Position numbers and translations under genes: made by a program. DNA of 64,000 nucleotides from a virus: the IMG/VR virus record IMGVR_UViG_3300034200_001185, positions 1 to 64,000 of that record. One strand, written 5' to 3'. Below the pieces are notes generated by a model. It had not been told where the DNA came from, searched no databases, and saw nothing but the letters and a program-made list of their open reading frames with translations. Numbering within the stretch: the stretch's first letter is position 1; every line of letters begins with the position of its first letter. Positions 4,935 through 49,745 of the stretch are shown in pieces.

Positions 4935-7022
4935 ATGTATTTACAACCGCTATTTCATAGTAGACCAACATTCACCGAAAAGACAGCATCGCCTGTAACA
5001 ACTCGTCTTCCAGATGATTCGAGTAAGTGGGCGCCAGTAGTCCTTAGCGAACTACATAAACAAGCTCCGATGATGCAAGACTTTCATTCGAATATTGTAT
5101 TAGATCGCGTAGAAGTAAATAAAGGTTTCGGTTTCGGTTATATTATTGCAAAGCCAAAATCGTCAAATCCATTACTCGCTACTAAAATGCCTTACATTCG
5201 TATTCCTGTTGTAATACGTAATTGGAAGTTAGCACCATTCGATATTTTCTTCGATCAATCCGGTAAGGGTTATCCGATTACCGAACGTAGAATTCAAGAC
5301 TCGCTTATGAGAACTGACGCATTTGACGGACCAGCTTCCGATAGTGATGGCGGTTCAAACGATATGAGAACAATGCTTACACCTCCTTGGGAAAACGTTG
5401 GTCAATTCTATCGTGGTGTAAACACTGCCGTATCTCAAGGATCGCAAGTTAAAACATCAAGCTTGCTAAACGCACTCGACGGTACTGTTGACGAGAAATC
5501 AATTCTTCAACTTGAAAAGTGGGTTAACTCAGACGAAGGTATTCGTTCTCTTTATGATCGTGATGTACAAGGCGCTTTCCTTGATGCGCTTAATTTAAAT
5601 CCCGGCTTTCAAGGCGATTATATTAAGACTGCGGAATCAAGTGGTCCAACCGTTATTCAATATCGTTGGGATGGCGGTAAGAATATGACCGTAAAGATTG
5701 CACAACCAGATGGGTTTGCACCACAACAAGGTCAAGTAGACGCACAACAAGCTGCGCAAGGTATGGATCCAAACCAACAAGCGCAAGTAGCTCAAGAAGG
5801 CGCAGCCGTACAAGCGCCACCTGCTGAAATTATTTCGCCAGAACAATTAGAGTCAGACGAATATATGCCAGTGTCACAATTCGGCGTATATAAAGTACTT
5901 ACAGTAAATAACGAACAATTAGTCGGTTGGGTGTTTCCTTATATTCTTTCGTTTAAGATGGAAAAGGTAAACATGGCCGTATTTACAGATGGTACAAACT
6001 ACGCCACACATGCGTCTATACCCGGTGTGCCTATCGGAAGTTCTACATCCTTGCCAAACGAACAACCACAAGGCAGAGGCGTATTCTATGTAATTCGTGG
6101 GGGTAGAGCGTTTTGCTTTGCTCCAGTCGAATTAATGGGCGAACAAACACAGCCAGACGGTAGTAGCATGTTTATGGCGCAAACAATCATCGGTGGAAAT
6201 CAAATACAACTAATGAAGGTGCAAGGCCTTCGCGCTGCTGCTGAAATGGGCGAAAGCGTATTCGGTATTCCGGAAGACGCTAAGTGGCTCGGATTTAAAC
6301 ATCAAACAAATCCTTTAGTCGAAGATCCAGCACAAGCTACACAACGTGGCGCAACATACGTAATGGCAAGAGCTGCGCAATTACAACAGCAACAAATGGC
6401 GCAACAACAAGCCGCTGCTCAGCAACAACAAGGCGGAAAGAAGGGCGGAGGTCAAACAAAGACATCTAGCCTTATGGCCACAATTCGTGCTACTCAAGAC
6501 GGTACTTACACATTATCCGGAGAGCCATTCGAAAAGATTGCGTATGAATATACTCACTTCTTAGACGAACATGATACCGCTTGGATGTTAGCGCTTGCAG
6601 GTATTGCACCTGAGTACACAATGGATAAACTCGCAAGTATTCATACTTATGGCGGGTACTTACAATTCCCCGTAATTAGACAACTTACTCCGCCAAAACA
6701 ATTCCACGTAAAGACAGCTGCGCTTACGGAACTTACAAGTAAGTATAAGAGATTTATGGCTAAGCACGCAGCGGCTCTCGAAGATCCTATGGTCGCTGAT
6801 ACGCTTTTATCTCTTAACTTTTTAACACCCAGAAACGTAACAACATTCATTGATTACTTAGATCAACTCGAAGATACAGTAAATGCGGTATCTAACTTGT
6901 TGCTTGCGTCAAGAGTAGGTATGAAAGAAATACCAGAGATTGCTTGCTCGGAAACCTTGCGTAATTTAGAAGACGTGATTAATGGTTTAAAGATGGTAGC
7001 AATGAAACGAGGTAAGTTGTAA
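4935..7022 (+). CDS. Hypothetical virion/prohead core protein, 695 aa, with many K-x-A/K-T-S motifs
   Basis: SD AGGAG. Motifs EKTAS, VKTSS, IKTAE, TKTSS, EKIAY, DKLAS, VKTAA. Q/A-rich linkers. Confidence 0.6.
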   Translation: MYLQPLFHSRPTFTEKTASPVTTRLPDDSSKWAPVVLSELHKQAPMMQDFHSNIVLDRVEVNKGFGFGYIIAKPKSSNPLLATKMPYIRIPVVIRNWKLAPFDIFFDQSGKGYPITERRIQDSLMRTDAFDGPASDSDGGSNDMRTMLTPPWENVGQFYRGVNTAVSQGSQVKTSSLLNALDGTVDEKSILQLEKWVNSDEGIRSLYDRDVQGAFLDALNLNPGFQGDYIKTAESSGPTVIQYRWDGGKNMTVKIAQPDGFAPQQGQVDAQQAAQGMDPNQQAQVAQEGAAVQAPPAEIISPEQLESDEYMPVSQFGVYKVLTVNNEQLVGWVFPYILSFKMEKVNMAVFTDGTNYATHASIPGVPIGSSTSLPNEQPQGRGVFYVIRGGRAFCFAPVELMGEQTQPDGSSMFMAQTIIGGNQIQLMKVQGLRAAAEMGESVFGIPEDAKWLGFKHQTNPLVEDPAQATQRGATYVMARAAQLQQQQMAQQQAAAQQQQGGKKGGGQTKTSSLMATIRATQDGTYTLSGEPFEKIAYEYTHFLDEHDTAWMLALAGIAPEYTMDKLASIHTYGGYLQFPVIRQLTPPKQFHVKTAALTELTSKYKRFMAKHAAALEDPMVADTLLSLNFLTPRNVTTFIDYLDQLEDTVNAVSNLLLASRVGMKEIPEIACSETLRNLEDVINGLKMVAMKRGKL

Positions 7023-8756: not shown

Positions 8757-10508
8757 ATGCCTATATTCAAGAATACGAGTTCCGTACGAGACGGACTTAG
8801 TAAAAGTTATCGAGTTCGTCCGTATATCGCAGATCCGAATCCAATCATAGAAGAATGGGATTTAGAGCCGGACATACAAGACGTAGAAATATCTAAATCA
8901 ATTATAACAGAAGTACACCCAACAGACTTTGTAGAGTTTGCAGTTGTTATTCCAGATCAAGCGAGTAAGCAGTTAAAACAATTCTCGTTTGCAGAACGTA
9001 GGTACCTAAAACCTGTATACGATACAACATCACCACGTGTATTACTAAAGTGCGGTCGTCAAGTAGAAAAGAGTACATATCTCGGCAATCGCTTGCTTGC
9101 GCTTACATGCATTCAGCCAAACTTTACATCTTTGTACGTAAGTCCTACAAACGAGCAGACTAAGACATTCTCAAACGACCGTATTCGAGAACCATTAGAA
9201 ACAAGTGTTAGATTACAAGCGTGGACAAATTCATCTTTAAGTCAGAACGTATTTAGAAAGAAATTCATCAATCGATCTCAAATTGTTTTAAGGTATGCAT
9301 TCTTAAACGCAGACCGTGTGCGCGGTATTCCAGCAGACTTAGTTTGTATAGACGAGATACAAGATATTTTAACGGATAACATTCCTGTTATCGAAGAATG
9401 TATTTCACACAGTTCTTTTAAGTTTAAATTATACGCAGGTACTCCCAAATCTCTCGATAATACAATCGAAGGTTTGTGGGTAGAAGAATCTACGCAGAAT
9501 GAATGGGTAGTTCCGTGCGACTCTTGTGGCGGAGGTGCTTATCGTTATTGGAACGTACTAGGTGAAGAAAACATAGGAAGGCATTCTCTTATATGCGATA
9601 AATGCAAAAAACCATTAAATCCAATGCACAATGACGCGCAGTGGGCAAGTATGAATCCAAATCCACGTGTTCCTTACCCAATGGAAGGGTACCGTGTTCC
9701 TCAAATCATGGTACCGTGGATGCCTTGGGATGATATTTTAAACAAGCAGATGACTTACTCTCGTGCTAAGTTTCATAATGAAGTACTCGGCCAATCCTAC
9801 GATAGTGGTACTCGTCCCTTAACTCGTTTTGACGTAGAAGAAAACTGCTCAAAGACAATCGGACTTGGCCCGGATTCATTACGCATTCAATTGTCAAAAT
9901 GTTCCGGAAAGGTAGTTTATATGGGCATAGACTGGGGTACAGGCGAAAACACATACACGGTAATTGTAATCGGGGTATATATTGATAGTTTCTTTCACAT
10001 AGTTTACGCAAAGCGTTGTGAAGGGCCTGAGAGCGAGCCTGATGCGCAACTTGCAATCATTGAAGAGTTAGTACGTACTTGGAAGGTACAATTTATAGGG
10101 TGCGACTACGGTGGTGGTTTCGATAGAAATGATAAGCTCATTCGTAAGTATGGTATTCAAAAGGTATTCAAGTATCAGTATTCGTCAATTACAGGTAGTA
10201 AGTGGAAATGGGAACAAGGCTTAGCGAGATACCTTGTAAATAGAACGGAATTAATGAGCGATATATTTAATGCGATTAAGAGAAGAACGATATTTAAGTT
10301 TCCGAAATGGCTTGATTGGGAAAAGCCGTTTGCGCAAGATATGCTAAACATATTTTCGGAATACTCAGAAGAACGAAAAATGAACGAATATAAAAAGAGT
10401 AAATCCGTAACAGATGATACGTTTCACGCAATACTATTATGCTTTCTCGTATCTCAAATGACTACGCCTCGTCCAGATGTTCTAGTTCCGTCAAAGGAAA
10501 GTCAATAA
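8757..10508 (+). CDS. terL: Terminase large subunit (GpA-like)
   Basis: Walker A-like KCGRQVEKST, Walker B LVCIDEIQD, coupling GTP, Zn-binding Cys pairs, RNase H-like nuclease MGIDWG..DYGGG..DDTFHA. SD GGAG. Confidence 0.9.
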   Translation: MPIFKNTSSVRDGLSKSYRVRPYIADPNPIIEEWDLEPDIQDVEISKSIITEVHPTDFVEFAVVIPDQASKQLKQFSFAERRYLKPVYDTTSPRVLLKCGRQVEKSTYLGNRLLALTCIQPNFTSLYVSPTNEQTKTFSNDRIREPLETSVRLQAWTNSSLSQNVFRKKFINRSQIVLRYAFLNADRVRGIPADLVCIDEIQDILTDNIPVIEECISHSSFKFKLYAGTPKSLDNTIEGLWVEESTQNEWVVPCDSCGGGAYRYWNVLGEENIGRHSLICDKCKKPLNPMHNDAQWASMNPNPRVPYPMEGYRVPQIMVPWMPWDDILNKQMTYSRAKFHNEVLGQSYDSGTRPLTRFDVEENCSKTIGLGPDSLRIQLSKCSGKVVYMGIDWGTGENTYTVIVIGVYIDSFFHIVYAKRCEGPESEPDAQLAIIEELVRTWKVQFIGCDYGGGFDRNDKLIRKYGIQKVFKYQYSSITGSKWKWEQGLARYLVNRTELMSDIFNAIKRRTIFKFPKWLDWEKPFAQDMLNIFSEYSEERKMNEYKKSKSVTDDTFHAILLCFLVSQMTTPRPDVLVPSKESQ

Positions 10509-11848: not shown

Positions 11849-12387
11849 GCGTTTTAAATAAGTACAACTTTCCACCACACGTTAAAGAACGAATTATGAC
11901 TAAGGTAGCAAGTACCGTAGCACAATTAGAGACTAACGGAAATATTAAAACAGCCGCTACCGCAATGGACGCTTTAATTGGCGGTACAGCCGCAGCTGCC
12001 GTGACATACGGTATTCCAAAGCTATTCGATGCAATCTCTGCAGCACGTGTGAGATCGAATAAGCAAAAGAACTTAAATGCGATGAAACAAGTACATCCCG
12101 AACTTCGTATGATGTCGGAGAGAAGCCTTGATGTAGCGTATAACTCTTTAGCGATTCACTCTCCAAGTGTACTTGAAGATCCGCTAGTCGGCGGTCAAAT
12201 GATTCGTGATATTGCACAACGCGGTAGCATGGACATTAATCAGCTTAAGACAGTTAGCCAATTACGTGGTACTGGCGTAACAGAACACGAACTTGCAGCT
12301 CTTAGGGAACTTTCCAGTGGCGTACGTGGTTCTATTATGTACAACGCTGATGCAAACAAGGCAGACCCAAATAAGAGAACAAAATGA
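11845..12387 (+). CDS. Hypothetical prohead protein with Gly/Ala hydrophobic helix
   Basis: TKVAS and IKTAA near the N-terminus; ALIGGTAAAAVTYGI. Confidence 0.6.
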   Translation: MSVLNKYNFPPHVKERIMTKVASTVAQLETNGNIKTAATAMDALIGGTAAAAVTYGIPKLFDAISAARVRSNKQKNLNAMKQVHPELRMMSERSLDVAYNSLAIHSPSVLEDPLVGGQMIRDIAQRGSMDINQLKTVSQLRGTGVTEHELAALRELSSGVRGSIMYNADANKADPNKRTK

Positions 12388-14261
12388 TCGAAAAGCAGAG
12401 CTTATTCGCACCAAAGGGTTTATACGGAGAGCCTTTATTCAATTTGATCGACTTTTCAGGTGGTCATAGCGAATACTTAGAAAAGACTGCCGGCATACAC
12501 CCTGAAATACTTGCGTATAAGAATCAGTTAGAGCCGGATCCCGGTAAGACCTACGTTCATATTCTCGCCTTAGGTGCGGGCGAGTACTACGGTCCTAATC
12601 TAAACAACGACTTCTTTAATTGGAATGGGCTATCACACGACCATACCACTACACCTCACGAACATGTACACGGTTATAAAACGTTCTTAAATGCACATGC
12701 ATTTGCGCATCACGTAAATAAGGATCCAGAGAAAGCGTACGGAGATGTTCTACTCAGCGTCTTAAATAATAAGATGAAACGTGTAGAGCTAATCGTAGCG
12801 ATTGATCACCAAAAGTGTATGCGCAATGGTGGCGGTAAAGTACTCGAAAGAATACAAGCGGGGGAGTACCCATCTACAAGTATGGGTTGCCGTGTTCCTT
12901 ATGACGTTTGTAGTATTTGCGGTAATAAAGCAAAGACACGACCAGATTACTGCGAACATATGAAGAACGAGGCGGGTAAGATATACCCAGACGGTAGAAA
13001 GGTATTCGTGTACAACGAATTTCCTAAGTTCTTTGACATTAGCTTTGTGTTTATCGGTGCTGATCGTACTAGCTTTGTGCTAGAGAAGATTGCTAGTTAT
13101 CGCGGACACTACGTTCCAAGACAATTACCAGAGATTGAAAAGACAGCAGGCGATGCAGGTTTGTCTAAGAATTTGCGTAAAAAGTCGGGAACGACTATGA
13201 AACAAATTCTACCTAGAATACAAAAGAAGGTACAACGTCAAAGCCACTTCACACCGCGTCCTATTACCTTTGGTAAGATTAATACATCGCTAAAGAGAGA
13301 CAGGGAGCAAGCGTTTAGTTCTGTATCATCTCTCGCTTATTCTCCGAATAGTAATTTGGTATTTAAGCACGGACCTGCGATCATACTTAAAAACGAGGAC
13401 AATAAGGTTGTAGCGAATATGGAAAAATCGTCTGCATATAAAATCGCTGAAACATTAAAGCATAGCGATATCTTTAAAGATGTTAATTCTTTACCTATGG
13501 GTAAGGCAGTTCCTATGCTTGTTGGCAAGGATCCGGATTTACCGCGTCCTATTATTGGGCGTATTGCGTCATCCCCAGATATCGGTAGATCACTATCAGA
13601 AGCCGGATCGATGGGTATCGTTTTAAAGCCTAACGAATTTCAGCGTACACTGCTAATGCGAGCCGGACAAGGTAATCTAGCCGATAAGTTAGAAGATCAA
13701 GGCCATGTGTTTAATCCTAATACACCAAGACCTATCGTAAGATCTATGCGCATATCAATATCACCAACAGGCGGTATATCTCCCGGTATGATGGACATGC
13801 TCGGGCCTATGCTTGAGCATCGTAGTAGCATTACACCGATTGCGATTAGACGTATTACTGCCGTTAAATTACCGCTACAAAATGACTACGACGAAGACGA
13901 TTCGGAATTTGACGACAGCTATTCGGAATCCGAAGATGATGATATGCCACCAATCGTTCATCGTATAGGATCAATGTATAACGGTTATCGTTCGGATTTA
14001 CTTGACAATATAGAAAGTTTAATGCAAGGTTCTAGTAGCGGTAACATGCTTTCGCAAATTGAAAAGATTCGCGGTGGTAGTTATTTAGATGATGACGTTA
14101 TGCAGTCATTGTGCTACGTACCTGTTGCTTACTTTTCGCATGCCTATTGGAATCGCTGTTGTTGTGACGGAAAGACTCCAGAAGAGTTTGCGTTTAAATT
14201 CGTAGAAAAAAATCCGAATATCGCAAAGTACTTAGCTGAATGGGTTGCTAATAAACGATGA
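12384..14261 (+). CDS. Prohead maturation protease (clan SH type) with long C-terminal extension
   Basis: His in AFAHHVNK, nucleophile motif TSMGC, Zn-finger-like CSICG..CEH, closing strand FFDISFVFIGAD. Located upstream of scaffold and MCP. Confidence 0.8.
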   Translation: MIEKQSLFAPKGLYGEPLFNLIDFSGGHSEYLEKTAGIHPEILAYKNQLEPDPGKTYVHILALGAGEYYGPNLNNDFFNWNGLSHDHTTTPHEHVHGYKTFLNAHAFAHHVNKDPEKAYGDVLLSVLNNKMKRVELIVAIDHQKCMRNGGGKVLERIQAGEYPSTSMGCRVPYDVCSICGNKAKTRPDYCEHMKNEAGKIYPDGRKVFVYNEFPKFFDISFVFIGADRTSFVLEKIASYRGHYVPRQLPEIEKTAGDAGLSKNLRKKSGTTMKQILPRIQKKVQRQSHFTPRPITFGKINTSLKRDREQAFSSVSSLAYSPNSNLVFKHGPAIILKNEDNKVVANMEKSSAYKIAETLKHSDIFKDVNSLPMGKAVPMLVGKDPDLPRPIIGRIASSPDIGRSLSEAGSMGIVLKPNEFQRTLLMRAGQGNLADKLEDQGHVFNPNTPRPIVRSMRISISPTGGISPGMMDMLGPMLEHRSSITPIAIRRITAVKLPLQNDYDEDDSEFDDSYSESEDDDMPPIVHRIGSMYNGYRSDLLDNIESLMQGSSSGNMLSQIEKIRGGSYLDDDVMQSLCYVPVAYFSHAYWNRCCCDGKTPEEFAFKFVEKNPNIAKYLAEWVANKR

Positions 14262-15076: not shown

Positions 15077-15304
15077 ATGGAATATGCGGTTTGGCATGCG
15101 TTCTTTGACGAGCTTGAAAAGATAGCCGGTATTAAAATGCCTCCGGCTATGCCACCGCCTCCAAAGGTGGCTTTACCTTATCAACAGTTGCAGAACGCTC
15201 CTCCTATACCGTCTCCACCGGGACAGACGATTAACACGGGCTTTGGCCCTACGCCGATTCGTAAAGACATCGGTATTTCACCGTACGGTCCACAAGCGAG
15301 GTAA
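15077..15304 (+). CDS. Small Pro-rich protein with FFDELEKIA leader
   Basis: MEYAVWHAFFDELEKIAG followed by a Pro-rich tail. Confidence 0.6.
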   Translation: MEYAVWHAFFDELEKIAGIKMPPAMPPPPKVALPYQQLQNAPPIPSPPGQTINTGFGPTPIRKDIGISPYGPQAR

Positions 15305-16682: not shown

Positions 16683-17849
16683 ATGAATTACAGCGCCGAA
16701 ATGGTTAATAGTTTATTTGTTGAAAAGCTTGGTACAGAAGAAGGTCGTTCTAAGCTCGCAGCTTACGGTGGTGGGGTTATCCGAGATCACTTGCGCGAAG
16801 TATCGTTTGCAAGAAAGATCTTGCCTCCACAACCAATTACTCCCGCAGAATGTCAAGTTTCTACCGAACATGATGGCCTCGTAAAGATCGAAGAACTCGA
16901 ACCTGAATCACGCGCAATGGTTGTTGACTTCCGTGGTCAAGCCAGAGCTCGTTACATTCGTGCACCTCGTGTTGCCGTGTCATTCTTTACAATCGAATCT
17001 GAACACTTCGAAAAGACTGAACAAGAATTGCTCGCGTATAAAATGCCAATCACCAAAATGATTGAAGAACAATCCGCAAACAATCTTCAAGAAATCGAAG
17101 ATCGTCAATTCTTATTGTATGCAGAAGCCGGTATCCAACAATTACAAAAGGACAGCAACGAAAAGTCCTTTGGTACTCAAGCCGGTTTTAGTGCATCAAA
17201 CGTTAACGCAGCTAGCGTTGCAAACGGTCCAGATCAAAACGCATCCGTTATGAAAGGCCAACTCGCACTCGCAGCTACACAAGACGACTTTGTTGTACGT
17301 CCTGTAAATCGTCCAGACTTTATCAACTTCTTTAAGATGATGTCTGGTCCAAATCGTCGTTTAAGACTCGAACTTGTTTTGCTTACCGAATCTGATTACG
17401 ATGACGTTCTTCAATGGACAATCGAAGATATGGGTGATCGTATTCAATCTGAAACAGTCGTTGAAGGTTATAAATACAATACTCTTCTCGGTCGTCGTTT
17501 CGTACGTACTATCAAGACTGATATTCTCCGTCGTGGTAATGTTTACGGTTTCACTGTTCCCGAATTCTTAGGCGTATTCTATGTATTGAACAATACAAAA
17601 TTCTATGTCGATAAAATTGGTAACAAGATCACATTCTGGTGTTGGGAAGACATCGGTATGGCGTTCCTAAATCTCAATTCTCTCGTAAAGATGGAATTGT
17701 ATAGCGGTTCTGTTACACCCGGTTTCGAAACAGCTCAAATTGGTGGCCTTAGCTTTGCTGACAGATTGCCTGCTGACGAAGAACAACTTGGTCGTGCTCG
17801 TAACCGTGCTGGCGATGGTTTCATTAATCCAGTCGTTACACAATTCTAA
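16683..17849 (+). CDS. Major capsid protein (HK97 fold)
   Basis: 388 aa, strongly biased codons, position after protease/scaffold, pattern RKILPP..EKTEQELLAY..LQEIEDRQF. SKLAA at aa 23-27. Confidence 0.8.
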   Translation: MNYSAEMVNSLFVEKLGTEEGRSKLAAYGGGVIRDHLREVSFARKILPPQPITPAECQVSTEHDGLVKIEELEPESRAMVVDFRGQARARYIRAPRVAVSFFTIESEHFEKTEQELLAYKMPITKMIEEQSANNLQEIEDRQFLLYAEAGIQQLQKDSNEKSFGTQAGFSASNVNAASVANGPDQNASVMKGQLALAATQDDFVVRPVNRPDFINFFKMMSGPNRRLRLELVLLTESDYDDVLQWTIEDMGDRIQSETVVEGYKYNTLLGRRFVRTIKTDILRRGNVYGFTVPEFLGVFYVLNNTKFYVDKIGNKITFWCWEDIGMAFLNLNSLVKMELYSGSVTPGFETAQIGGLSFADRLPADEEQLGRARNRAGDGFINPVVTQF

Positions 17850-40262: not shown

Positions 40263-41462
40263 CTAGTAATACTTAGCGTTTCCTTTAACCTTAGCGGAGC
40301 TTGTATTCGATATATACTGAGTATCTGCGTTTAACTTCTTATTGTCCGTTGCTACCTGCTCTTTGTGCGAAAGATTGTCCCACTTCTTCTTTGGTAGATA
40401 GCGTGATGTAGATCCGTCTGACTTCTGTGCGATTTCAGATGTGCCTGGTCGTGTTTGCCAATCTTGCTTTGTCCACTTACGCATGGAGTTATTTGCAGGC
40501 GTAGGCTTCTTACCGGAGTATGTACCGCCCTTATCCTTATACAGCTTAACGGCTAGCTGCATTGCTCTTGCGCTATGCTTTCCGCCCATTTTCGCTTTTG
40601 CTTCTTGCTTTGCCTGTTCCCACTTTTGTGGATCGCGCTTAACTGCAACTGCTGACGCTGTCTTCGTATTCGGCTCTTTTATGTACCAATGCATGCCTTC
40701 AACCATCGACTTGTTGCCCTTTACGTATCCAGCTTTTAAATGCGCTTTTATACTTGCAATATTTGTGTCTTCTATTAGCACTTTGGACTTCTTGTCAGCC
40801 ATATAATCACCGATTGCCTTAGAAGCTAAACCTTGTCCACGGTATTCCGGTCTTACGTATAAAGCGCCTACTCTATGATAACCATTCTCTTCTCTAGGCG
40901 TAAAGAATCCGACAACTTCATTATCCTTATGAATTGCTACTCTGTTTACCTTCTTATTTGGATATACGTAGCCTTCTATATCCTTATCCTTATTTGCATC
41001 TAATAGCAATTTTCTAGGAATAACAGAGGCTGTCTTCGTATGAACTGGTGTAAAGTATGTTAATCGATTGCCGATTGGGTCGTATATCGTTGAATCCCTA
41101 TCGCCCCATTCTCTTGTTGTTGGTTTACTTGCGTCTATGCCTTTATTGGATAAATACCGATGTGCCTTGTCTACGTTTTGTACTCTCTTACTCATTCGCC
41201 AAGGACTTGTTGAACGTTCTCCGTCGTGCATAAGCTCTATTACGGTATTCTTGCCTATCCTAAACATAGATCCCTTATCGCCTGGATCGTCCCAACTCGT
41301 TTCCTCTTCGAAACCTAGTTTATTATAAAAGTCTCTCGTTTTATAATAATCCTTTTCGTTCTTTATATACGTAATATGTCTCGAATCTTTAGACATAAGT
41401 GGATTTGATGACGCTATCTTCTCAAGCTCATCTATAAATGCGTATATCATGTATTCATTCAT
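40263..41462 (-). CDS. Three-domain protein: VOC/glyoxalase + GNAT acetyltransferase + DUF5872-like
   Basis: Leader AFIDELEKIAS. VOC: FYNKLGF..NVDK..EWG.R..YDP.GN. Linker TKTAS. GNAT: VGALYVRPEYRGQGLASK. Linker TKTAS. Then HSARAMQLAVKLYKDKGGTY..KWTKQDW..RYLP. Confidence 0.75.
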   Translation of the reverse strand: MNEYMIYAFIDELEKIASSNPLMSKDSRHITYIKNEKDYYKTRDFYNKLGFEEETSWDDPGDKGSMFRIGKNTVIELMHDGERSTSPWRMSKRVQNVDKAHRYLSNKGIDASKPTTREWGDRDSTIYDPIGNRLTYFTPVHTKTASVIPRKLLLDANKDKDIEGYVYPNKKVNRVAIHKDNEVVGFFTPREENGYHRVGALYVRPEYRGQGLASKAIGDYMADKKSKVLIEDTNIASIKAHLKAGYVKGNKSMVEGMHWYIKEPNTKTASAVAVKRDPQKWEQAKQEAKAKMGGKHSARAMQLAVKLYKDKGGTYSGKKPTPANNSMRKWTKQDWQTRPGTSEIAQKSDGSTSRYLPKKKWDNLSHKEQVATDNKKLNADTQYISNTSSAKVKGNAKYY

Positions 41463-41824: not shown

Positions 41825-42838
41825 TTAGTCTTTATTACGGTTATATAAATACGCCCCAGCCCCCAAGCCTGCAGCACCAGTGCCACCTATAATATATTTA
41901 CCATAACGCTTTTTAGGCGCATCGGCAGTACTATGATTAGTGTTAGTAGGATGTGCTGAGTAATCTCCGGTCGCCTCTTGTATTACGGACTTAGCTTCGT
42001 TCTTAGCTTCGGTAGGTTGTACGGGTGCATCCACTTTCGCTTCTTGTATTACGGACTTAGCTTCGTTCTTAGCTTCGGTAGGTTGTACGGGTGTATCCGC
42101 TTTTGGGGCAGATCCTTTAATTCTAGCTTTCGCCTCTGCTAATGTTTCGCCTTCTCTTATATCGTATTTAGAACGTGCATTAGTAGTACCAGTAGTTATC
42201 GTTTTTTTGTGCGATGGGTCAAAGGGTTGTATTGGTATATCCGCTTTTGTGGTGGACCCTTTAATTCTAGCTTTCGCTTCTGCTAATGTTTCGCCTTCTC
42301 TTATATCGTATTTAGAACGTGCATTAGTAGTACCAGTAGTTATCGTTTTTTTGTGCGATGGGTCGAAGTTACTACCACCTACTTTACCGGAACCTGAACC
42401 GATTACGGGTGTGTGTGGCTTATTAAGTATCTCCATTCGCTTTAATCGTTCTTGTTCAGCAATATACCGGTCGCTTGCATTAAGCTCTGACACATGTTGC
42501 GCATTTCCTGTATAAGTATTATCCGCTATACTTCTAGGTTTTACATAACCAGTGGACTTACTCTCAACCGTTTCCATCAGAGATTTAGTTGTATTATGCA
42601 ACTTCATATTAATTTCGCCAGCTTGTCGCTTTAATATGGTTGCTTGTTCCAAACTCAACTTAGGATCGTTAGATTTAGCAAGCAATTTCTGCATTAGTTT
42701 TACGCCCTTGTTAATTGTCATATCACCGTGTCCCGGTATGTTGACTACTTTTTTACCAATGAATCCTGGTAGGGCCGTTTTAGTCATTTCAATGTTCGTA
42801 ATTGTTCTGTATAATCTAATTCTAGTATCTGTAAACAT
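41825..42838 (-). CDS. K-x-A leader, internally duplicated, tail-anchor protein
   Basis: EMTKTAL; 48-aa and 22-aa duplications; YIIGGTGAAGLGAGAYLYNRNKD. Confidence 0.7.
   Translation of the reverse strand: MFTDTRIRLYRTITNIEMTKTALPGFIGKKVVNIPGHGDMTINKGVKLMQKLLAKSNDPKLSLEQATILKRQAGEINMKLHNTTKSLMETVESKSTGYVKPRSIADNTYTGNAQHVSELNASDRYIAEQERLKRMEILNKPHTPVIGSGSGKVGGSNFDPSHKKTITTGTTNARSKYDIREGETLAEAKARIKGSTTKADIPIQPFDPSHKKTITTGTTNARSKYDIREGETLAEAKARIKGSAPKADTPVQPTEAKNEAKSVIQEAKVDAPVQPTEAKNEAKSVIQEATGDYSAHPTNTNHSTADAPKKRYGKYIIGGTGAAGLGAGAYLYNRNKD
41977..42367 (-). repeat. Intragenic duplications (66-nt period at about 41977/42043; 144-nt period at about 42116/42260)
   Basis: Near-identical DNA blocks encoding PVQPTEAKNEAKSVIQEA and FDPSHKKTITTGTTNARSKYDIREGETLAEAKARIKGS. 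Confidence 0.9.
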
Positions 42839-49178: not shown

Positions 49179-49745
49179 TTAGCTCTTTTGGTGGTGCGCT
49201 TTAAACTTACGTAATGCTTGCAACTTCATCTTATCGAACTTAGCGTATTCGTTATCCTTAGCTTTCGATGTATGTTCTAGGTCTCGAATGAGATCATCCA
49301 CATGTACGAATTCTGCACCTTCGAGTTGATCGCCTTCCTTACCAAGTAGGGATTTATCTCGCTGTCCCAAAGGAGCTGCCATAAAGTGCGATACTTCTCC
49401 GTGGAAGTCTCTTCCCTTTGCTAACGCTTGTTGGCGAAATGACTTATTCCAATTTACCTTCTTACTATACCCGAAGTGGTATGGATCGGAAGATGTTGAA
49501 TAGCCTGCCTCTTCGAGTAACTCTTTTCGAGTTGCTTCTGGTAAGCTCTCGCCTTGTTCCACGCCACCGCCTGGAAACTTATAGTTTGGATACTGACGCA
49601 AACCGCTACCAGATCCCTGACTTCTACTCGCTAAAATGCGCATGTCAGGTGTGTACAATAATGCTTGTACCTTAGGTCTGTATCGCTTTTCTTCCGCAAT
49701 CTTTTCAAGCTCGTCAACGAACGATTCAATTACTTTATTCTTCAT
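49179..49745 (-). CDS. Nudix hydrolase with FVDELEKIA leader
   Basis: Nudix box GGVEQGESLPEATRKELLEEAG; leader MKNKVIESFVDELEKIAEE. Confidence 0.88.
   Translation of the reverse strand: MKNKVIESFVDELEKIAEEKRYRPKVQALLYTPDMRILASRSQGSGSGLRQYPNYKFPGGGVEQGESLPEATRKELLEEAGYSTSSDPYHFGYSKKVNWNKSFRQQALAKGRDFHGEVSHFMAAPLGQRDKSLLGKEGDQLEGAEFVHVDDLIRDLEHTSKAKDNEYAKFDKMKLQALRKFKAHHQKS

Follow-up and report, generated by a model that had tools for sequence, protein, structure and literature searches.

In phage T4 the gp21 prohead protease removes an N-terminal capsid-targeting sequence from the internal proteins and from Alt, a sequence that reportedly directs the internal proteins to the capsid. The head proteases of phages SPN3US and phiKZ act at a motif of the A-x-E type. 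Herpesvirus assemblin has maturation and release sites of the form (V/L/I)-x-A↓S (arrows mark points of cleavage, known or predicted), and phage prohead proteases are said to be homologous to the herpesvirus protease. Here we analyse a viral gene whose product, a chain of 399 residues referred to as P0001, joins three domains at two identical T-K-T-A-S linkers and may be cut there by the head maturation protease encoded in the same genome. The stretch of DNA that was analysed, hereafter the window, is the first 64 kb of the linear IMG/VR virus record IMGVR_UViG_3300034200_001185, which is 133.5 kb long and estimated to be 72% complete; its GC content is approximately 41%, and the source is a tailed phage with a whole genome of roughly 180 kb.

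Two accounts of SPN3US and phiKZ (PMC10052503, PMC7411985) describe many head and ejection proteins that are processed at one consensus motif, a protease that cleaves itself and certain propeptides that contain several sites. Besides the self-cleavage of the protease, all identified cleavages yield N-terminal propeptides (PMC10052503). The polyvalent proteins include GNAT domains, kinases and SNF2 helicases; their predicted route is delivery together with the DNA and release by proteolysis (PMC5512222). The virion proteome of Salmonella phage Arash comprises 116 proteins, many of them enzymes and ribonucleotide reductase among them, and is reported as coverage rather than as termini (PMC10585845).

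Results

Architecture of the chain

Read from its N-terminus, P0001 consists of an acidic leader, a VOC (glyoxalase/bleomycin-resistance-like) module, a TKTAS linker, a GNAT acetyltransferase module, a second TKTAS linker and a basic, DUF5872-like C-terminal domain (CTD) (Table 1). This order had been proposed in a first-pass annotation made from the DNA letters alone, and both the reading of the open reading frame (ORF) and the matches to Pfam and PHROGs bear it out. The Glyoxalase family PF00903 matches residues 37–134 (28.9 bits against a cut-off of 20.6, E 1.6e-6), and the VOC module also matches PDB entry 4hc5 (E 0.0022). In the second module PF00583 matches residues 176–246 (32.8 bits, cut-off 20.7), PF13508 matches residues 177–225 (34.8 bits, cut-off 27) and a match to PF13673 begins at residue 163; together these span residues 163–246, and PHROG 1249 (acetyltransferase) stretches the match to residue 257. 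The acetyl-CoA pyrophosphate-binding loop of GNAT enzymes, defined as (Q/R)-x-x-G-x-(G/A), is intact as R-G-Q-G-L-A at residues 208–213. NCBIfam gave no subfamily, and hence no hint of a substrate, for either VOC or GNAT, and P0001 matches no peptidase family in any of the three collections (Pfam, PHROGs and NCBIfam). The predicted products of the three modules have masses of 15.0, 14.0 and 14.6 kDa and are all basic, while the 17-residue leader is acidic.

The leader ends in EKIA↓S (residues 14–18) and is helical from residue 3 to residue 18 in the AlphaFold2 (AF2) model. The same leader, aF.DEL.K[ILV]A, is found in distant homologues of P0001 and in four other ORFs of the genome, where it reads AFFDELEKIA↓G, SFVDELEKIA↓E, AFYDELEKVA↓F and AFSDEFEKLA↓T (pattern aF.DEL/F.EK[ILV]A). 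We regard it as a candidate capsid-targeting propeptide.

Three independent routes place both TKTAS linkers on predicted domain boundaries. The VOC part can be aligned with the solved VOC structures 4hc5 and 1kmz as far as residue 129 of a chain of 130, which corresponds to query residue 140 and directly precedes H-T-K-T-A↓S. The standalone GNATs of Ralstonia phage RSL2 (ORF021.1, 135 aa) and Burkholderia phage FLC9 (gp263, 154 aa) are homologues of module 2 and terminate 2–3 residues past query residue 261–262, just ahead of N-T-K-T-A↓S. Standalone CTD genes have 19–24 residues ahead of an invariant MGGKHSA, compared with 22 in the predicted product beginning at S270. The joints thus match the ends of the modules as seen in solved VOCs, standalone GNATs and standalone CTD genes, which was the outcome that the first-pass annotation had looked for. 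The full-length AF2 model is poor (predicted local distance difference test, pLDDT, 58.9), so the boundary of the VOC module was taken from the alignments to solved structures. The GNAT residues 150–261 reach a pLDDT of 65–82, and AF2 confidence for the GNAT and CTD folds is moderate. Linker 2 has low confidence both in the full-length model (pLDDT below 50 at residues 265–272) and in a model of the CTD (residues 262–268) and is predicted to be disordered.

Exchange of modules at the joints

Alleles found at one syntenic locus, with a conserved 92-aa gene on one side and a conserved membrane-protein gene on the other, differ by whole modules exactly at the K-T-A joints. The set comprises six alleles of related metagenomic phages (P0002–P0007) at the same locus as P0001. 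P0002 has the architecture of the window, while P0004 is built as leader-VOC-HTKTA↓E-CTD; it has no GNAT module and is 124 aa shorter, equal to the 372-nt spacing of the repeated linker DNA. In P0003 a 172-aa P-loop kinase stands at the position of linker 1 between two HTKTA↓S joints and is followed by GNAT and CTD, and in P0005, P0006 and P0007 the VOC module is replaced by a Pro/Gly-rich segment and an unknown module. The GNAT module, and others besides, have therefore been gained or lost exactly at the joints among relatives. Nucleotide identity to the window varies by module (in P0004, for example, 96% for VOC and 89% for the CTD), which indicates that the alleles are mosaics. Amino acid identity across the six alleles is 86–99% per module with lower nucleotide identity, indicating purifying selection. 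The proposal that three independent modules share one chain is borne out by the domain matches, the joints at the boundaries and this exchange taken together.

The relatives without GNAT have an additional 289-aa gene just upstream of the polyprotein gene (L002:5124-5993 and L003:4190-5059). Its leader is nearly identical to that of the polyprotein and the residues upstream are identical (92% over 36 aa), as if the leader and the 5′ region had been duplicated as one unit.

The K-x-A motif and the head maturation protease

Across the 153 ORFs of the 133.5-kb record the pattern [ET]K[TIL]A[SAG] is found 13 times where 1.15 occurrences are expected, an excess of approximately 11-fold, and three of the 13 sites lie in P0001, a number reached in none of 100,000 shuffles. 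The more general K-x-A[SAG] is present in the first 45 residues of 21 of these ORFs (8.3 ± 2.8 expected), 17 of which are in the first 64 kb, where the head module sits. The motif occurs near the N-terminus of the major capsid protein and of the likely portal, on the flanks of the head maturation protease domain (Table 1) and in several small head-module proteins. At the aligned position the capsid protein has V-K-E-A↓G in Arash (residue 27) and T-K-E-A↓G in Vibrio phage D69 (residue 29).

The gene for the protease lies between the portal region and the capsid gene. Its product is 42–46% identical to Arash gp222 and D69 0270 and 37% identical to gp19 of Bacillus phage G, and K-x-A sites on both flanks of the protease domain are kept in all four phages; in the IMG/VR record G001 the protease likewise lies between copies of the motif. 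H110 and S166, approximately 55 residues apart as in assemblin-like or HK97-type serine prohead proteases, are invariant in six protease sequences. The protease family is present in four of four long IMG/VR records in which the CTD is fused at K-x-A joints and in none of five near-complete records of 58–80 kb with a standalone CTD.

The protease family has further features of its own. Between S166 and the end of the domain there is a CxxC...CxH (zinc-ribbon-like) insert, common to the homologues from Arash, Vibrio D69, phage G, Gordonia and cluster C mycobacteriophages, and in the protease of the window approximately 370 residues follow the domain, beyond two K-x-A sites. The scaffold-like proteins gp220, gp223 and gp225 of Arash (L007) and 0268, 0271 and 0273 of D69 (L012) have 4–10 K-x-A↓[SA] sites each, often within repeated E-L-V-K-E-A↓S or L-E-K-A-A↓A units. 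These proteins look built for dicing by the protease, and so many sites are as expected of proteins that are degraded in maturation. The capsid protein of phage G, gp27 (L016:12290-13138), has an N-terminus that aligns with that of the window (...TEEGR...) but reads V-A-L-A↓Q versus S-K-L-A↓A, so that Lys at P3 is not universal in this protease family.

Longer homologues and the C-terminal domain family

Chains of 700–1800 aa join the CTD with NUDIX, GNAT, kinase, SNF2 helicase, PAP2, FMN reductase or DnaJ domains, and relatives of P0001 contain as many as 6–9 segments. In most of these longer chains K-x-A↓[SAGE] sites are 2–5 times more frequent than in shuffles and the segments are approximately 110–200 aa long. 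Among nine long chains that were scanned, none of the 44 sites fell within a Pfam envelope (approximately 18% of residues being covered), a count taken from our own reading of the site and domain listings rather than from a scripted check. The domains mostly start 5–11 residues past a K-x-A site, and both SNF2 lobes lie in one segment.

The CTD is the most conserved and most widespread part of the chain, with at least 557 coding stretches in IMG/VR. Among the best 80 of these, from which lengths and N-termini were taken, most (more than 60) are standalone genes of 119–137 aa, and their natural N-terminus matches the predicted neo-N-terminus. The label “DUF5872-like” that the domain had been given is fair but weak. 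Precomputed matches to PF19197.6 are present on 10 homologues of P0001, the ESM Atlas neighbours of the CTD fall in clusters in which 13–15% of members have DUF5872, and Foldseek against BFVD pairs the CTD model with a DUF5872 protein of Chrysochromulina virus CeV-01B (E 0.05), whereas the local PF19197.5 model gave no match at E ≤ 10 on the CTD or anywhere in the genome. The sole Pfam or PHROG match on the domain is phrog_14910, a family of unknown function. A Foldseek search of the CTD model (pLDDT 72.8) against the PDB returned nothing at E ≤ 0.001, and a wide VIA-align search gave a best Z of 4.0, with two-helix matches only. That the CTD associates with nucleic acid is a guess from its charge.

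Synechococcus phage S-CRES1 has three adjoining small and very basic genes, gp96–gp98 (L017:4612-5638), beside a lysozyme gene. Of these, gp97 is a CTD on its own, gp98 corresponds to the module found after the CTD in the homologues P0012 and P0014, and gp96 resembles an HNH-like basic module seen in P0009 and P0011. Parts that are fused in other phages are therefore separate genes in this one.

Proposed processing and alternative readings

The reading that we favour, and think probable, is that P0001 is a cargo polyprotein that is loaded by means of its leader, cut by the head protease at K-x-A and delivered to the host as separate modules. The acidic, helical leader AFIDELEKIA↓S probably steers the chain into the assembling prohead, and the head maturation protease probably cuts after the Ala of K-x-A in three places. 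These cuts would take off the leader and free three proteins of approximately 14–15 kDa, one VOC/bleomycin-resistance-like, one GNAT and one basic and DUF5872-like. Carried in the capsid, the freed proteins would probably reach the host together with the DNA and act there early as effectors.

Taken as a polyprotein with processing sites, this reading is well supported by comparative data but unproven, and several points weigh against it. We infer the cleavage, the protease responsible, packaging, ejection and the biochemical targets, and both cleavage and presence in the virion rest on sequence. The claim of the first-pass annotation that the motif is a processing site accordingly stands in part: K-x-A does occupy positions expected of head-protease maturation sites, and does so as far away as Arash, D69 and phage G, but the cut itself is inferential. 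The protease is identified by its PHROG match and by the annotation of its homologues as maturation proteases. It belongs to no Pfam family, and neither do the capsid protein and the likely portal; a profile of the protease family found only chance zinc-finger matches to the CxxC...CxH insert among PDB sequences. Nine records are a small sample for the co-occurrence of fused chains and protease. In the full-length AF2 model the second half of the VOC module and linker 1 are poorly predicted (pLDDT below 50 at residues 76–146). At P5 the internal linkers have H or N, where a hydrophobic residue is usual in N-terminal sites, and at P4 they have T, where most of those sites have E; in several alleles Glu stands at P1′ before the CTD. 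The internal sites could for these reasons be cut less well or not at all.

A broader form of the favoured reading is more tentative, and we would sooner doubt it than rely on it. Here the combination of K-x-A↓[SAG] and the aF.DEL.K[ILV]A leader would be a general cargo code in a broad clade of large phages with a protease of the Arash/D69/phage G type. Whatever module came after the leader and between K-x-A joints would be loaded into the prohead and freed, and the phages would maintain evolvable kits of injected cassettes. Such cassettes (VOC, GNAT, kinases, NUDIX, SNF2, FMN reductases and PAP2) could serve counter-defence or host takeover in the first minute, and the ubiquitous basic DUF5872-like domain could be a DNA-associated passenger.

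The alternative that survives best, although we think it unlikely, is that P0001 is an uncleaved three-domain fusion enzyme in which K-T-A-S is a favoured flexible linker, or a docking or address motif that is not cut, and the modules act as one 45-kDa protein. Some polyvalent proteins of phages are known to keep their several domains in one intact chain (PMC5512222), and the indirect case for cleavage, the Glu at P1′ in several alleles and the linker context [HN]-T-K-T-A, which is unlike the leader-type L-E-K-I-A at P4/P5, would all suit such an enzyme. However, the leaders of the capsid protein and the likely portal end in the same tripeptide, which in four distant phages also stands on either side of the protease domain, and a mere linker would be unexpected in such places. 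The peptide motif is moreover kept across unrelated pairs of modules, each module also occurs as a standalone protein with the same ends, and the fused forms were seen only in records with the protease family.

A second alternative concerns only the origin of the chain, and we hold it to be somewhat less probable still. The 13-bp sequence GCTGTCTTCGTAT occurs exactly twice in the 64 kb (0.08 copies expected), once in each linker as had been observed earlier, and this shared DNA, a direct repeat, could have been the recombination joint by which the GNAT cassette was inserted or deleted. The shortening of P0004 by exactly the repeat spacing, 124 codons, would fit a deletion of this kind, but the CTD of P0004 is a different allele, as the module identities given above indicate, so it did not arise by simple repeat-mediated deletion from a window-like gene. 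Both linker copies use the rarer Thr codon ACG, and the probability of identity over 13 nt given identical peptides is approximately 0.014 from codon usage; this 1.4% chance is suggestive at most, and mildly so, as it comes from one genome and was noticed post hoc. The identity is also not kept among relatives: the 96%-identical allele P0002 has ACT in its second linker where the window has ACG, and the three linkers of P0003 differ in codons at several third positions. With a constant peptide and varying codons, the target of selection is the peptide and not the DNA, and selection for in-frame joints that leave domains whole would alone put the surviving breakpoints in linkers. Homology-guided exchange through the linker DNA is therefore not supported, and this part of the first-pass annotation was not borne out.

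It is very improbable that the joints are cut by some other protease, either a host protease after entry or the neighbouring HExxH zincin-like protein, in a manner akin to the self-processing proposed for polyvalent proteins. The gene for the latter, a HELGH protein, is only 2 kb away and has a relative of 66% identity in a related contig, and among the processing domains of polyvalent proteins the zincin-like peptidases are the most frequent (PMC5512222). It is nevertheless a weaker candidate than the head protease: the protein has no Pfam or PHROG family match, to a peptidase or otherwise, and no homologue at tblastn E ≤ 0.01 in a phage collection that includes Arash, D69 and phage G, whose head modules are nonetheless rich in K-x-A and share the head protease. 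Sites that flank the head-protease domain are typical of autoprocessing. Signal peptidase I, whose sites follow the A-x-A rule, was rejected because Lys at −3 breaks that rule.

Gene neighbourhood

The features discussed above are collected in Table 1. The upstream neighbour of the P0001 gene, at 41825-42838 (−), has a possible start M-T-K-T-A↓L and contains a direct repeat of approximately 50 aa (FDPSHKKTITTGTTNARSKYDIREGETLAEAKARIKGS, two copies), followed by a terminal Gly-zipper helix and YLYNRNKD. Searches of the locus against cultured phages by blastn gave zero matches, the conserved 92-aa neighbour found no relatives when used as an IMG/VR query, and a promoter and terminator scan gave no signal above chance.

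Table 1. Coordinates of P0001, its parts and related features (positions in the window unless marked as genome)
Feature	Position	Strand	Remarks
P0001, whole ORF, modular polyprotein (predicted)	40263..41462	−	399 aa + stop; ATG at 41462, stop 40263-40265
Acidic N-terminal leader, residues 1-17, ending AFIDELEKIA↓S	41412..41462	−	AF2 helix; isoelectric point (pI) 4.05
Module 1, VOC/glyoxalase/bleomycin-resistance-like, residues 18-145	41028..41411	−	PF00903 envelope 37-134
Linker 1, T-K-T-A↓S, residues 142-146	41025..41039	−	13-bp repeat copy 41029-41041
Module 2, GNAT acetyltransferase, residues 146-269	40656..41027	−	PF13508, PF00583
Linker 2, T-K-T-A↓S, residues 266-270	40653..40667	−	13-bp repeat copy 40657-40669
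Module 3, basic CTD, DUF5872-like, residues 270-399	40266..40655	−	pI 10.1
Likely portal, 695 aa, K-x-A site at residue 18	4935-7022		Head-module ORF without family match
Large terminase	8757-10508		
Head maturation protease, domain ~37-237, K-x-A sites 36, 237, 255	12384..14261	+	phrog_18299
Major capsid protein	16683..17849	+	phrog_2522; S-K-L-A↓A at residue 26
ORF with the same leader	15077-15304	+	
ORF with the same leader	49179-49745	−	
ORF with the same leader	genome ~68623	+	
ORF with the same leader	genome 81719-82114	+	
HELGH zincin-like protein, 404 aa	43443-44657	+	Gly-rich hydrophobic helices at both ends

Discussion

If the joints are cut, P0001 would represent a polyprotein strategy in a double-stranded DNA phage, in which one gene and one leader bring several enzymes to the capsid and then to the host. 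The cut would also define a new head-protease specificity, K-x-A↓S/A/G, common to Salmonella phage Arash, Vibrio phage D69 and the Bacillus megaphage G. The 116 proteins of the Arash virion fit heavy cargo loading in this phage group, and processing of this kind would help to account for there being more than 100 of them. It would further allow packaged or ejected proteins to be predicted from sequence independently of their function, supply a natural, modular system by which foreign proteins could be tagged, loaded into capsids and released, and give a first context for the widespread DUF5872-like domain.

Full-text literature searches found no description of the K-x-A motif or of such polyproteins, and the known systems each resemble the proposed one in part. 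The T4 site, (L/I)-x-E↓, differs from the K-x-A↓[SAG] found here, and T4 substrates lose an N-terminal propeptide only, whereas internal cuts in P0001 would yield several enzymes from modules that are exchangeable cassettes. The assemblin sites share Ala at P1 and Ser at P1′ with the window, and assemblin cuts both itself and the scaffold, a parallel to the processing proposed here, but in the window phage Lys at P3 is the most constant residue. RNA virus polyproteins are also single translation products cut at short consensus sites into independent enzymes; they comprise essential replication and capsid proteins and embed their protease, in contrast to the accessory and swappable cargo proposed here for a double-stranded DNA phage. 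The internal proteins and Alt of T4 (review, PMC9026906) are similar in that a short N-terminal leader ends at the consensus site of the head protease, the enzymes and effectors packed in the head are delivered with the DNA, and the same site is present on capsid and scaffold proteins. The cleavages identified in SPN3US and phiKZ yield no strings of released enzymes, and the protease family of those phages is unlike that of the window.

The polyvalent proteins (Iyer et al. 2017, PMC5512222) are alike in placing several unrelated effector domains in one phage polypeptide, at least two disparate domains being their criterion, and P0001 has VOC, GNAT and the CTD. A search of that account for the term “glyoxalase” found neither a VOC nor a DUF5872-like domain. 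Release of polyvalent proteins is attributed to peptidases embedded in the chain, mostly zincin-like but also assemblin-like, LonC or DD, whereas P0001 has no peptidase and instead has short, regular sites that fit a head protease acting in trans, together with a common N-terminal leader. Compared with known processed cargo and polyvalent proteins, what would be novel in this locus is the K-x-A consensus, the internal release of several enzymes from a chain without an embedded peptidase and the exchange of cassettes at the very sites of predicted cleavage.

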